IMG/VR virus record: IMGVR_UViG_2740892271_000004
Strand: one strand, 5' to 3'
Source: a virus
Lineage: Duplodnaviria; Heunggongvirae; Uroviricota; Caudoviricetes
DNA: 44,313 nt
The notes beneath the pieces were generated by a model. The model was not told the DNA's origin and made no database searches. It saw only the letters and a list, made by a program, of their open reading frames with translations. Below are positions 1 through 44,313 of this stretch, one piece after another (the first letter of the stretch is position 1; the number at the start of each line of letters is the position of its first letter). Position numbers and translations under genes: made by a program.

Positions 1-140
1 CATTGAGATTTTCTACAATCGTCAGCGTCGTCACTCTCGTCTGGGGAATATCTCCCCGGCAGCCTTCAGGGAAAAATATCATCAGATGGCTGCTTAAAAA
101 AAGAACAAATGGTAGTGTCCGCTATTGCCAGTACACCTCA
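1..140 (+). mobile_element. IS3-family insertion sequence, right-terminal 140 bp (window-truncated); possibly IS600-like
   Basis: Positions 2-97 translate to IEIFYNRQRRHSRLGNISPAAFREKYHQMAA-stop, a typical IS3-family OrfB C-terminus; terminus ...CCTCA at 140; the exact reverse complement of 1-140 recurs at 44174-44313. Element name is a guess from memory. Confidence 0.7.
2..97 (+). pseudogene. IS3-family transposase OrfB, C-terminal 31 codons (5' part outside window)
   Basis: In-frame translation ends with conserved YNRQRRHSRLG motif and stop at 95-97. Confidence 0.65.
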
Positions 141-339
141 GCTATTACCTTCTTCAGAGAGCCCCCAGCTACTTCCTGTGACTCTCGATGCAGCTGCCGA
201 ACAGCCAGAATCGCTCGCAGAGGACCCGAAAACCCTCAGTATCAGCTGTGAGGTAACGTTCCGGCACGGGACGCTCCGCTTCAATGGCAATGTCAGCGAA
301 AAGCTCCTGACTCTGCTGATACAGGAACTGAAGCGATGA
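141..339 (+). pseudogene. IS66-family orf1 (TnpA accessory protein), C-terminal fragment
   Basis: Open frame ending ...RFNGNVSEKLLTLLIQELKR with stop overlapping the orf2 start; N-terminus replaced by IS3 terminal sequence. Confidence 0.5.
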
Positions 340-659
340 TCCCGTTACCTTCCGGGATCAAAATTTGGCTGGTTGCCGGTATCACCGATATGAGAAATGG
401 CTTCAACGGCCTGGCTGCGAAAGTACAGACGGCGCTGAAAGACGATCCCATGTCCGGCCATGTTTTCATTTTCCGGGGCCGCAGCGGCAGTCAGGTTAAA
501 CTGCTGTGGTCCACCAGTGACGGACTGTGCCTCCTGACCAAACGGCTGGAGCGTGGGCGCTTCGCCTGGCCGTCAGCCCGTGATGGCAAAGTGTTCCTTA
601 CACAGGCGCAGCTGGCGATGCTGCTGGAAGGTATCGACTGGCGACATATAACCAGGTGA
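336..659 (+). CDS. tnpB: IS66-family orf2 (TnpB), probably truncated by a few codons at the C-terminus
   Basis: 107 aa, MIPLPSGIKIWLVAGITDMRNGFNGLAAKV...LLEGIDWR is characteristic IS66 TnpB; stop codon TGA 657-659 coincides with the proposed prophage left terminus. Confidence 0.8.
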   Translation: MIPLPSGIKIWLVAGITDMRNGFNGLAAKVQTALKDDPMSGHVFIFRGRSGSQVKLLWSTSDGLCLLTKRLERGRFAWPSARDGKVFLTQAQLAMLLEGIDWRHITR

Positions 660-822
660 ATCATTTGATACCGACAAGGGGTTTAGTGAAAGGAGGTGAA
701 ATCACCTGTAAGATACTGAAATAAAACAGGTGATGGCTAGATGTGCGGATAAGGTCTATTTGATACCGATTGTGCAATAATTAGTCATTTATTATAAAAT
801 CGGCAACTCATTTGATACTGTG
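657..822 (+). repeat. attL: candidate transposase binding sites L1 (661-674), L2 (756-769), L3 (808-820)
   Basis: Direct repeats of TTTGATAC(C/T)G with Mu-like spacing (L1 near terminus, L2/L3 about 95 and 150 bp inward); left terminus begins TG at 657. Confidence 0.6.
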
Positions 823-892
823 GTTTTAGTCTTTTAAGGCGTTCCAAACAATGCGAAATACTCGATATAGTGCAAAATGCGGGCTAATGCTA

Positions 893-1438
893 TTAACCCG
901 CTTTTGGTTCTACCGCGTTAGATTTGCGACTTCTCTCAGTTTCTTCCAAAATCTCTCTGACGCGTTCGTCAGACATACCTTCAAGCTGTAATGCAGCTAT
1001 TCTTTTCCTTCCTTCTAAGCGGATTAGATCTTGATTTTCAGGCTCTAACAACCGAGCTAAGTACTTGGCTCCATTCAGAACCAAATTTTTCGATAGCTGC
1101 TCTAAGTCTTTTTCATCAAGTGCGCTGATAATCGTCATAATTATCTTCTTGCTTTCATCTTGATTTTCCTTGATCTCACACCGATTCACTTGTGATGCAT
1201 CACTGAATCCACATAGCCACTCAACACTTACTCCTTCGATAGACGCAATCTGAAGGGCGACACTTAAGGATGGCTCAGTGCCACGAGACAGATAATTGTT
1301 TAGTGTTGAAAATGAAAGCCCCCAATCTCTTGCTGCAGCTCTGACGCTGCGGGAGCCAATCAGCCTTTTCAGACGCTCAGCAATGCTTTCTTTTCTACCA
1401 CCAGGAAAAGAAAGAGATGTTGTTGTTTGCTTGTTCAT
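893..1438 (-). CDS. c: Mu c-like repressor (HTH DNA-binding)
   Basis: 181 aa, leftward-transcribed first gene as in Mu; HTH-like segment SVRAAARDWGLSFSTLNNYL; SD AGGAAG upstream of ATG at 1438. Confidence 0.75.
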   Translation of the reverse strand: MNKQTTTSLSFPGGRKESIAERLKRLIGSRSVRAAARDWGLSFSTLNNYLSRGTEPSLSVALQIASIEGVSVEWLCGFSDASQVNRCEIKENQDESKKIIMTIISALDEKDLEQLSKNLVLNGAKYLARLLEPENQDLIRLEGRKRIAALQLEGMSDERVREILEETERSRKSNAVEPKAG

Positions 1439-1479
1439 TTTCTTTTCTTCCTATCAATTTGAAATTATTAACTTTTAGT

Positions 1480-42120: not shown

Positions 42121-42299
42121 TGAATAAGCCGCAACTGGCGGAATCACAGAAGACCGCTTTGCTTACCGAAGCGGAGTCTGTCATCCGGCCGCGGGGGCGT
42201 GCTGTCAGGCTGAACAGGGAAACGGATGAATCCGGGGAGGCCCGGGGGCGGGCCTCTGTTTTTCCGGAGTCAGTCCGGTCTGTGGTTTATGCGATGTGA

Positions 42300-44006
42300 T
42301 TATGAATGGTGCAGTTGTGAGCCGTTTTCAGACAATCGCAGGGCCAGTACCTCGTCAGTCAGCTGACGGTAAATCTGCTGTTCAGTCTCACGCATCACCT
42401 GTGCACCGGCTTCCCTCTCCGCATCCGCATCACCGCTCAGACCTGATGCTTTCAGCCGGTCAGCCACCCTCTGAGGGTACTCATTCTCCAGCATCTCATA
42501 TTTCTGCTCTTCTGCCAGCGCCCAGCGGTCAGCTTCCGTACGCTTCAGTACAGCATGCCATGGTCCCCAGAGGGAGAACCAGTCCGTAAATTCATTCTCT
42601 TCACGGCTTCTGACCATGGCTTCGGCAGTGCGGAGGTCATTTGCTGTCACTCCCGACACGCCATAGAAACGCATTTCCTTCACGGCAGTGGAGAGCTGAA
42701 GTTTCTCTGCGAGCATGGTCTGGAAGGCCAGGTAGACTTCTATCTCATCCACAAAATGGAGAGTTCTGACTTTATCCCGGGCAATGTCCTCCAGAATTTC
42801 GAGGCGGAACATTTCCCTGCCCAGGGAGAGCAGAGCGCCGGTATCATTATCGAAAAGGCCTTCTGATGCCTGATGGACCAGGAGGGTTTTCCGGAGATTG
42901 TTCCATGTGAGCGCGACACGGTCCTCACAGCTCTCAGTGGCATCAGCAGCAACAGCGAAAGACTGCTGTCGAAGCTCCGCAGAGGCACTGAGTTTTTCCA
43001 GCCATGCAGCGACCTGTTCACGGAATCCGGAGGTATTGCGTGCAGAGACGGTATCGGAAAGGCGGTCAAGGAACGCGGAAAAGGTGTTGGCGTGCTCTTC
43101 ATGTTCAAAAGCATGCCATATCTGTGATACATCAGATTGTTTGTTTTCCGGGAACCATGCTGTCACGGCATCAGCCAGGGGGCGATGGAGTGTATTCTGT
43201 TGTCCGTCACTCATGGAGAAGTAAATCCGTGGGCCGTGGTAGTCCGGTTGGGCGGTTTGTTGCGACAGAGACTCCCTGATCCGTGAGGACAGAGGATTGT
43301 CTTCGAGGATGATAGTGCAGGTCGGATCAAGGCTAAGTATATTTTCCGGAATGTATGTGATGCGATTCTCGCGGCACCGGAAAAATATCTCGGTTTCCTC
43401 TGAGTGATGATTTCTTACAGGTACGGCTGGTAGGCTTTCCAGAAGATTAGTACTTACATCGAGCGCTTCCAGTGATTCAGGTAACTCAGGGAGAAATGTC
43501 AGCTGGTTATTTCTTACTGAGAGCACTTCCAGCGATGTAGGTAATTCAGGAAGCATGGTTAGCTGATTGTTATCTGCATTAATATATTCCAGCAATGCAG
43601 GCAATTCAGGAAGCATGGTTAGTTGGTTGTTATCTACATCAAGATGTTTCAGAGATGCGGGTAATTCAGGAAGTGTTGACAGGTGATTGTCACAGGCGTC
43701 AAGGTATTCCAGCGATGCTGGCAATTCTGGTAATGATATTAGGGCATTCTGAGTAATTTCCAGAACAGTGATTTGAGGTGGTAAGTTGTCAGGTAGCGAG
43801 GACAGATTTAAACGATTCAGTTGAAGCTCACTGAACTGATTGATGAGACATTCTTTAAGTAGGGAGACCGCTTCATTCCGATTTTCACCGGGGAGCGCTT
43901 GTTTTTCCCATTTATCCCATGCTGAAAAGTAATCAGCATATGTACCGGAAATAGTGTTATAAAAAGAATTTTGGGACAATGAAAAGTTATTATTTATCGG
44001 TAACAT
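42300..44006 (-). CDS. ipaH: IpaH-family type III secreted E3 ubiquitin ligase (LRR + NEL domain); start ATG 44006 or 44015
   Basis: N-terminus MLPINNNFSLSQNSFYNTISGTYADYFSAWDKWEKQALPGE, LxxLPxLP leucine-rich repeats, C-terminal NEL region with ATESCEDRVALTWNNLRK catalytic-Cys motif, ending LRLSENGSQLHHS. Confidence 0.9.
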   Translation of the reverse strand: MLPINNNFSLSQNSFYNTISGTYADYFSAWDKWEKQALPGENRNEAVSLLKECLINQFSELQLNRLNLSSLPDNLPPQITVLEITQNALISLPELPASLEYLDACDNHLSTLPELPASLKHLDVDNNQLTMLPELPALLEYINADNNQLTMLPELPTSLEVLSVRNNQLTFLPELPESLEALDVSTNLLESLPAVPVRNHHSEETEIFFRCRENRITYIPENILSLDPTCTIILEDNPLSSRIRESLSQQTAQPDYHGPRIYFSMSDGQQNTLHRPLADAVTAWFPENKQSDVSQIWHAFEHEEHANTFSAFLDRLSDTVSARNTSGFREQVAAWLEKLSASAELRQQSFAVAADATESCEDRVALTWNNLRKTLLVHQASEGLFDNDTGALLSLGREMFRLEILEDIARDKVRTLHFVDEIEVYLAFQTMLAEKLQLSTAVKEMRFYGVSGVTANDLRTAEAMVRSREENEFTDWFSLWGPWHAVLKRTEADRWALAEEQKYEMLENEYPQRVADRLKASGLSGDADAEREAGAQVMRETEQQIYRQLTDEVLALRLSENGSQLHHS

Positions 44007-44134
44007 GATGGACATTCAGTTAAAGCCGATGGACAAATGGCTTTGTTAAAAGAAATAAGTAGGAGTTTTTATGAAGTTCATTCCATGAAATGAACTTCAG
44101 CACTTTTTTATTATAAAAGGACAAACAAAATTGG

Positions 44135-44151
44135 CTGTAAAAAAACGATAC
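44135..44151 (-). promoter_or_regulatory. MxiE box upstream of ipaH
   Basis: Minus-strand sequence GTATCGTTTTTTTACAG matches the MxiE-box consensus GTATCGTTTTTTTANAG exactly; about 120 bp upstream of the ipaH start. Confidence 0.8.
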
Positions 44152-44173
44152 TGTTTCAGTTAACTGTGAATAG

Positions 44174-44313
44174 TGAGGTGTACTGGCAATAGCGGACACT
44201 ACCATTTGTTCTTTTTTTAAGCAGCCATCTGATGATATTTTTCCCTGAAGGCTGCCGGGGAGATATTCCCCAGACGAGAGTGACGACGCTGACGATTGTA
44301 GAAAATCTCAATG
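44174..44313 (-). mobile_element. IS3-family insertion sequence terminal 140 bp, inverted copy of 1-140 (window-truncated)
   Basis: Exact reverse complement of positions 1-140, including the transposase 3' end; terminus TGAGGTG... at 44174. Confidence 0.75.

Follow-up and report, generated by a model that had tools for sequence, protein, structure and literature searches.

The 44,313-nucleotide stretch of viral DNA recorded as IMGVR_UViG_2740892271_000004 (the window, taken here at its full length) raises the question of how a Mu-like prophage came to lie within an insertion sequence (IS) of the IS66 family that itself lies within the remnant of a lambdoid prophage, and whether one process or several produced the truncated and repeated sequences around it. 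The edges of the window are the ends of a draft contig, CWUW01000022.1 (assembly GCA_001249275.1; locus L039), the sequence of which is identical. Among complete genomes, it is closest to chromosomes such as HE616528.1, that of Shigella sonnei 53G. Our reading, to which we assign a probability of about 0.88, is that the window represents a chromosomal junkyard in a genome of the Shigella sonnei type, in which a series of independent mobile-element events ended with the insertion of a phage into an already dead tnpB gene. Every component of the region is a known element, i.e., IS600, an ISEc8-like IS66 element, an Sp18-type Mu-like phage, and an ipaH island on a lambdoid remnant. All breakpoints and target duplications have been shown, as have the empty site and the order in which the events followed each other.

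Comparison with prophage-free relatives provided the empty site. At one of the loci retrieved, L007, positions 9269-9914 are 100% identical to window positions 1-646, and positions 9911-12066 correspond to window positions 39280-41435. The two segments are contiguous in L007 and overlap by the tetranucleotide GACA. The unoccupied target reads ...GGCGACAGCC..., and its positions 9911-9914 align to both flanks of the prophage. The prophage extends from 647 to 39279 (plus strand; 38,633 bp), has the termini 5'-TATAACC...GCGCTATA-3', and matches its relatives to the last base. It is flanked by the two copies of GACA, the left one at 643-646, as defined by the alignment to an intact IS66 copy (L004) and to the empty site, and the right one at 39280-39283. 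The target duplication thus measures 4 bp, and the 5-bp duplication typical of Mu, which had been suggested as a feature to look for, is absent. The empty site in L007 already contains an IS600 copy in tnpA and a deletion in tnpC. Thus, the nesting of a Mu-like prophage in IS66 and of IS66 in a lambdoid remnant, which was proposed in a preliminary description of this DNA from its letters alone, is real, as follows from the alignments and the empty site.

The IS66 element was analyzed by comparison with the intact copy in L004, which is located on the pAA plasmid of Escherichia coli O104:H4, measures 2,442 bp, and is flanked on both sides by the 8-bp duplication AGTTGAAT. In L004, tnpA is located at 2819-3199, tnpB at 3196-3543, and tnpC at 3593-5131. 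This tnpA-tnpB-tnpC organization and the terminal inverted repeats starting with GTAAGCG, of which the right one falls in the window, identify the element as a member of the IS66 family. The window aligns to L004 in three blocks, i.e., 141-646 to 3001-3506, 39280-39424 to 3503-3647, and 39407-39868 to 4710-5171. The first block (plus strand) is 99.6% identical to L004 and comprises the 3' part of tnpA (141-338) and codons 1-103 of tnpB (336-646). The interrupted tnpB reading frame extends into the phage for 13 nt, up to a stop at 659. The second block picks up directly after the prophage with the 41 nt that complete tnpB and continues through the spacer between the genes into tnpC, of which it contains the first 18 codons. 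The remainder of tnpB (39280-39320, plus strand), the first 4 nt of which constitute the right GACA copy, encodes ...PKRLLTSLTML followed by a stop codon. It is followed by a remnant of tnpC (39370-39828, plus strand) with an internal deletion of 1,080 bp, which encodes 152 amino acids and matches positions 269-385 of the 387 positions of the transpos_IS66 profile. The element ends with its right inverted repeat (...GCACGCTTAC; 39829-39865, plus strand), which corresponds to that of the reference copy (2,442 bp). The window copy is thus 98.6-99.6% identical to the pAA copy and shares its right inverted repeat. In contrast to the pAA copy, however, it is dead, with tnpA split by IS600, tnpB by the prophage, and tnpC lacking 1,080 bp. 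These alignments correct the view that IS66 resumes only at 39310 with the last third of tnpC, as it resumes at 39280, directly after the prophage. Likewise, the phage is not located at the end of tnpB with IS66 sequence missing beside it, but inside tnpB, after codon 103 of 115.

The protein fusion created by the insertion, in which the N-terminal part of TnpB continues into phage sequence, was found in 110 blocks of the collection and is rarer than the TnpC remnant. Its carriers include a finished genome, CP176614.1 (L017), which contains a full IS600 copy on the left, as in the window. In L018 (1-357, CWZC01000017.1), the same junction between tnpB and the prophage follows an uninterrupted tnpA without IS600. 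Most likely, this apparent exception represents a different path through the graph of a short-read assembly, since the 506-bp IS66 stretch is common to other IS66 copies; the first 92 bp of L018 presumably are an end of IS1 and recur at many loci. The sister contig L041 seemed to lack 292 bp spanning the right prophage end, which would have represented a genuine adjacent deletion; this reading was rejected, as a single N marks the place as a scaffold join.

The interruption of tnpA was recognized correctly in the preliminary description as a cut at 140/141 by the end of an IS3-family element; the alignment to the reference starts at this point at position 3001, within tnpA. The element concerned is IS600. 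The window contains only its right end (1-140, plus strand, at the contig end), consisting of the last 32 codons of orfB and the right inverted repeat. The full copy is available in L007 (8145-9408; 1,264 bp), where it encodes an orfA/orfB transposase and has the trinucleotide GCT on both flanks. Its orfB product scores as an IS3-family transposase, and identical copies on S. sonnei plasmids are named "IS3-like element IS600" in RefSeq. As the other half of tnpA is found beyond IS600 in complete relatives and the GCT duplication is present there as well, IS600 arrived by simple insertion.

Downstream of IS66, a side-tail-fibre gene of lambdoid type is located at 39866-41054 (plus strand). That the right end of IS66 abuts a 5'-truncated tail-fibre gene had already been noticed, and the comparison bears this out: the inverted repeat ends at 39865, and the reading frame is open from there, up to the IS66 boundary. 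Residues 1-97 of the product match positions 35-131 of the 134 positions of the PF08400 profile. Since the match starts at profile position 35, approximately 34 codons are missing. Relative to L007, the tail fibre shows one substitution, S366C. The tail-fibre gene overlaps with a tail-fibre assembly gene (DUF4376; 41005-42120, plus strand), which is interrupted by a gap. A run of 507 N (41437-41943), which is also present in the public record, where the gene calls are split at it, replaces 16 bp, ACATATGGCGTGGAGC, in L007 and L042. This run is a mis-sized scaffold gap inside a repeated module of tail-fibre assembly gene and ipaH. The left end of IS66 is located outside the window. In L007 (6110-7876), its first 9 bp are gone, its flank is unrelated, and an IS110-family element adjoins it. 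Farther to the left, an apparent 3' end of a Tn3-family transposase gene is found rather than the sequence lost from the 5' side of the tail-fibre gene; the flanks of IS66 are rearranged.

The right-hand end of the window contains an ipaH-family gene (42300-44015, minus strand) for a type III effector with E3 ubiquitin ligase function of 571 amino acids, consisting of a leucine-rich repeat (LRR) part and an NEL domain. It scores 563 bits against the NF046045 IpaH_Shig model (cutoff 550), and the Pfam matches LRR_TTSS and NEL place it in the IpaH family. Four tandem units of 60 nt within the gene (43467-43706), which are 62-85% identical to a reference unit, correspond to leucine-rich repeats of 20 residues. 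It is followed by a second, inverted right end of IS600 (44174-44313, minus strand) at the contig end, where again 140 bp of the copy falls in the window. The module of tail fibre, DUF4376 assembly gene, a 59-amino-acid open reading frame (ORF), and a convergent ipaH gene is the one known from Shigella ipaH islands, in which ipaH genes are located at the tail-fibre end of decayed lambdoid prophages, and recurs at four or more chromosomal loci of one S. sonnei genome; the part from the assembly gene via the 59-amino-acid ORF to the 3' half of ipaH is present at at least four loci in a single genome (CP023645.1). The window differs from these islands in that the LRR half of its ipaH gene is that of the 571-amino-acid paralogue, which is found at another locus in finished genomes.

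The latter point is evident from two alignments. On the one hand, the window follows L007 only to position 43079. On the other hand, positions 44313-42228 correspond to positions 9703-11788 of L019, a locus with the cassette of the 571-amino-acid ipaH gene (ipaH-571), with one mismatch in 2,086 bp. The two alignments overlap in an 852-bp stretch (42228-43079) that the local ipaH gene in L007 and the cassette in L019 have in common. In finished genomes (L019-L028), a gene for exactly the same 571-amino-acid protein is located in the rsmF/yebY region, with an IS600 copy 158 bp upstream and a second, inverted copy 72 bp downstream. At the present locus, finished genomes contain an ipaH gene for 603 or 608 amino acids, then a resolvase gene and, as far as purL, core genes, and no IS600. 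Most likely, the last 2.1-2.4 kb of the window, with ipaH-571 and IS600, was attached by scaffolding through the multicopy repeat of assembly gene and ipaH, and we somewhat favor such a scaffold join or collapsed-repeat chimera over a real crossover.

Several points weigh against this reconstruction of the region as a whole. The insertion of IS66 is not backed by an 8-bp duplication, as its left end lies outside the window and is truncated in the relatives, where it abuts the IS110-family element. CP176614.1, the one finished genome with the phage insertion, was compared on its left side. That the prophage probably is still active is inferred from its intact look, from three copies of a putative transposase-binding motif at each end, and from the occurrence of an invertible segment in both orientations, all described below. 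Finally, L041 and L042 carry the same right-hand join without N, and among the prophage-bearing drafts the join appears to be confined to the sublineage with the S366C substitution.

The last two observations belong to an alternative that we regard as possible, if less probable than an artifact, namely that the join is real. In the S366C sublineage, homologous recombination between the conserved 3' halves of two inverted ipaH paralogues, the local 603/608-amino-acid copy and the 571-amino-acid copy at rsmF/yebY, might have inverted approximately 1.4 Mb around the terminus. The LRR half of ipaH-571 and the IS600 copy upstream of it would thereby have come to lie beside the tail-fibre assembly gene, in which case the inverted IS600 flanks would be true ones. 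In CP023645.1, the two ipaH genes are indeed found on opposite strands at 1.018 and 2.437 Mb, i.e., 1.42 Mb apart, and therefore one crossover would give the arrangement of the window. Furthermore, the 852-bp overlap, which represents the conserved 3' half of ipaH, contains two informative sites, of which 42864 agrees with L007 and 42956 with L019, and these fit a single switch between the two positions. The same pattern, however, is also expected from a collapsed-repeat consensus. On contigs of 20-50 kb, ipaH-571 was found in only eight blocks, vs. 108 for the prophage fusion, which argues that the join is lineage-specific, and a rearrangement linked to IS600 at the ipaH-571 cassette is visible in L028. 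Against these arguments stands the position of the join, which runs through a repeat present at at least four loci and lies beside a 507-N gap that should measure 16 bp. The sister scaffold L040 links the same left part, across 229 N, to a paralogous assembly gene at a different locus, by smpB, and the sister scaffold L043 ends after the tail fibre. The contigs that support the join all apparently stem from one batch of draft records with similar names, and the arrangement was found at none of the ten ipaH-571 places listed, out of 25 contigs read.

Far weaker is the explanation offered in the preliminary description for the missing part of IS66, according to which the phage sits where tnpB ends and, in transposing, removed some 1.1 kb of neighbouring IS66 sequence, so that the last third of tnpC was left next to it. 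Mu-type replicative transposition does generate adjacent deletions, and approximately 1.08 kb of IS66 is indeed missing. Thus, the size of the loss was estimated well, as 1,080 bp is absent, but its position next to the prophage was not: the loss is internal to tnpC and starts 127 bp further on. The missing sequence comprises positions 3648-4709 of the reference plus one copy of a repeat, and is located at 127-145 bp from the prophage end, the intervening 127 bp being intact IS66. The junction (39407-39424) falls within an imperfect 18-bp direct repeat, AACAGCGCCT(G/T)GCCGAAC, with 17 of the 18 positions matching, and the deletion lies between two such repeats. It was probably generated by slippage or recombination. 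Moreover, the 4-bp duplication on the two sides of the phage is intact, which is characteristic of a simple insertion. Above all, the deletion is found where the phage is not. The 152-amino-acid TnpC remnant is present in 457 blocks of the collection, and at all ten loci retrieved (L007-L016) the identical remnant sits beside an intact TnpB of 115 amino acids, with no prophage between the two. In nine of these ten loci, a nearby prophage is absent altogether, and the tenth (53G) has one in the tail-fibre gene. To our knowledge, precise loss of the prophage is not known for transposable phages. As the remnant sits by intact TnpB in ten prophage-free junctions, the tnpC deletion predates the insertion of the phage and arose independently, and it is very improbable that the phage made it.

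The two IS600 ends at the edges of the window (1-140 and 44174-44313) are 100% complementary, and it had been proposed that they bracket the entire 44-kb segment. They are exact inverted copies, but they do not establish such a bracket, as the edges are contig breaks in a multicopy IS and the right-hand 2.1 kb matches a separate cassette. Since a short-read assembler stopped in IS600 copies, 140-bp repeats were left at both edges, and their inverted orientation carries no information beyond the assembler having stopped in IS600 twice. Similarly, recombination between IS600 copies is generally plausible in such an IS-rich genome, but for the proposed inversion of 44 kb the window holds no specific evidence. 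That the inverted pair and all sequence in between would function as one unit, be it a composite transposon or a segment under programmed inversion, is hardly credible, for although the terminal 140 bp are identical and inverted and ipaH-571 in finished genomes is itself flanked by inverted IS600 copies, the finished genomes at the present locus (L007-L016) have no right-hand IS600 within 6 kb, IS600 is present in many copies (three within 22 kb of L019 and 8-11 on virulence plasmids), and the 140 bp mark the stopping point of the assembler.

The region would thus have been assembled stepwise by independent events. First, an ipaH-carrying lambdoid prophage would have decayed to a remnant with the tail-fibre gene, the tail-fibre assembly gene, and ipaH. 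Into approximately codon 35 of this tail-fibre gene, an ISEc8-like element of the IS66 family would have inserted. The resulting copy would then have been inactivated, in either order, both by insertion of IS600 into tnpA, leaving a 3-bp duplication, and by the 1,080-bp deletion between the two imperfect 18-bp direct repeats, which would have taken out most of tnpC. Much later, and in one sublineage, an Sp18-type Mu-like phage would have entered the dead tnpB gene by DDE transposition, duplicating the 4 bp of GACA. The three successive insertions postulated in the preliminary description are retained in this scheme, i.e., IS66 into the lambdoid tail-fibre gene, IS600 into tnpA, and the Mu-like phage into tnpB.

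Insertions may pile up at this locus because its DNA was already non-functional and insertion was hence neutral. This idea is suggested by the CC119 study, in which 6 of 10 Mu-like phages were located in other mobile elements (PMC10132054), and by a related prophage in 53G, which is inserted 1,214 bp away from the site used in the window. The latter, a heteroimmune Mu-like prophage, is located in the tail-fibre gene (L010 11124/11125 and L034 14409/14410, corresponding to window position 40493/40494), and may represent either a second independent hit in the dead region or a regional target preference. In Shigella and in Shiga toxin-producing E. coli (STEC), junk DNA of this kind commonly contains nested insertions.

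The prophage itself is 90-93% identical (90-95% over most of the length in a further comparison with LC727895) to the Mu-like phages in LC727895 and LC727881, which are annotated by the depositors as "inserted Bacteriophage Mu-like phage" in Shiga toxin phages, with 4-bp duplications. The Mu-like phages of these records have been called Sp18-like (PMC10132054; also PMC7430833). With prophage Sp18 of E. coli O157:H7 Sakai and Sp18-like STEC phages, such as Mu_JNE122137 in LC727895, the window prophage has in common ends of the type TGTAACC or TATAACC on the left and GCGCTATA on the right, six copies of a putative binding motif, a 4-bp duplication, and the gene order c-ner-A-B-kil-gam...mor-lysis-head-tail-invertible segment-gin-com-mom (PMC10132054, PMC7430833, PMC2628397). 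Its ends are the same as those of Sp18 except at the second position on the left, where TA is found in the window and TG in Sp18. It further differs from the group in its immunity module, with a repressor of 181 and a Ner protein of 76 amino acids, in its host, a Shigella sonnei-type chromosome, and in its target, tnpB of IS66; also, the region from gin to mom is only 67-78% identical to that in LC727895.

Like Mu, the prophage represents a temperate phage that transposes and encodes A and B. The two further have in common their type of head, tail, and baseplate genes, the combination of Gin with a tail-fibre segment that can be inverted, com and mom, three end-binding sites at each end, and near-random insertion sites. 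In contrast to Mu, it generates a 4-bp rather than a 5-bp duplication, and its right end reads TA-3' rather than CA-3', with TA at both termini in the window. Its transposase is distant from that of Mu: with phmmer against solved structures, the N-terminal domain of MuA was found (1TNS, E = 7e-6), and the MuA catalytic core was not detected in that search. At the nucleotide level, only approximately 630 bp can be matched to Mu, D108, and SfMu, at 72% identity. Thus, the features of Mu in the strict sense, i.e., a 5-bp duplication, 5'-TG...CA-3' termini, and a close sequence relation, are not those of this prophage.

Phages of the Sp18 group have inserted at many unrelated sites, comprising approximately 25 different host contexts. 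In all six independent insertions for which both junctions were available, the duplication measures 4 bp and is not extendable to 5 bp on either side. The duplicated sequences are GACA in the window, GCTG in 53G, TAAA in Sakai Sp18, AGAG in LC727895, CATC in LC727881, and TGTT in CP170329.1 (loci besides the window: L005, L006, L010/L034, L054/L055, and L066/L029). For the window and 53G, an empty site was also at hand and confirms the 4 bp. The right terminus reads ...GCGCTATA, thus ending in TATA-3' and not in CA-3', at every locus examined (more than 20). The left terminus is TGTAACC in most loci. The variant TATAACC is found in the window (647-653) and in four further prophages inserted at unrelated sites (L066, L071, L074, and L075), which have repressor and Ner calls of the same lengths as in the window (181 and 76 amino acids). 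The possibility that the change from TG to TA at the left end is a private inactivating mutation was considered and rejected, as the same end is found in these four insertions at other sites. Because it is shared in this way, the TA left end characterizes a subtype of mobile phages, which has inserted at five or more different sites and has TA at both ends.

Each end further contains three copies of the putative transposase-binding motif WTTTGATACY, identified by a motif scan. Those on the left are located at 663-672, 758-767, and 810-819 (plus strand), within 175 bp of the end, and those on the right between 39197 and 39263 (minus strand), within 85 bp of the end. The six copies, where 0.28 would be expected by chance, are found in the window only at the prophage ends and in inverted orientation. 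Also for Sp18, six putative sites have been reported (PMC2628397). An additional inverted repeat of 36 nt with 78% complementarity connects the left-end region (696-731) with the sequence just downstream of B (5002-5037). It includes the palindrome-like sequence GGTGAAATCACC and could serve as an operator or an enhancer-like site.

The gene content of the prophage is of the Mu type and includes genes for a repressor, Ner, a transposase, a MuB-like ATPase, Kil, Gam, GemA, and Mor, followed by lysis genes, Mu-type genes for the proteins of head, tail, and baseplate, the invertible segment for the tail fibres together with the gene of a Gin-type invertase, and com and mom. The repressor-like gene (893-1438, minus strand; 181 amino acids) encodes a helix-turn-helix protein with a weak match to HTH_3, and the gene for the Ner-like DNA-binding protein (1624-1854, plus strand; 76 amino acids) was identified by PF13693 (E = 1e-21). 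This immunity module is unlike those of the 53G and LC727895 prophages, as positions 649-1039 are only 78% identical and positions 1040-1972 unmatched in the relatives. The DDE transposase of the Mu A type (1857-3944, plus strand; 695 amino acids) contains HTH_Tnp_Mu_1 (PF02316) and Mu-transpos_C (PF09299), and the MuB-like AAA+ activator of target DNA (4018-4959, plus strand; 310 amino acids) matches AAA_22 and Phage-MuB_C (PF09077) in precomputed Pfam data.

The invertible tail-fibre segment, which is of the G-segment type, extends from 32810 to 34142 and was recognized by its inverted repeats (32810-32958 and 33994-34142) and its orientation. The adjacent gene (34213-34785, plus strand) encodes a Gin-type serine invertase of 190 amino acids with Resolvase and HTH_7 domains. 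The segment has one orientation in the window and L043 and the opposite one in the sister assemblies L040-L042. As both orientations are thus found among sister isolates, the Gin-type invertase is suggested to be active. Between gin and com/mom, a cargo gene (34871-36925, plus strand) encodes a SASA/DUF6645 protein of 684 amino acids (PF03629 and PF20350). The exact sequence of this sialate-O-acetylesterase-like protein was found in 4,464 blocks, and the gene may be a conserved cargo or tail-associated gene of the phage group. The com gene (38260-38460) overlaps with mom (38414-39151; both on the plus strand); these assignments are based on the Pfam matches Zn_ribbon_Com and Mom on equivalents and on inspection of the reading frames.

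The value of the analysis is mainly corrective, as readings that are plausible from the raw sequence fail after empty-site genomes and the provenance of the contig have been examined. In the same vein, a draft-assembly join through a multicopy ipaH repeat is not to be trusted without long reads. For Shigella genomics, a sublineage marker is documented, namely a prophage of the Sp18 type that occupies a dead copy of IS66 within an ipaH island. For the mechanics of transposition, the uniform 4-bp duplication and the TA termini are mildly unexpected and of modest interest. CA-3' ends are near-universal. In the literature searched, no discussion of the 4-bp duplication in Sp18-like phages was found, and two GenBank records annotate it. 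We consider it likely, with reasonable though incomplete confidence, that Sp18-type phages use a transpososome unlike the Mu paradigm, which would cut the target with a 4-bp stagger and process TA-3' ends. If so, these phages would offer a natural variant for asking what sets the stagger length and the terminal-dinucleotide specificity in DDE transposases of the Mu type.

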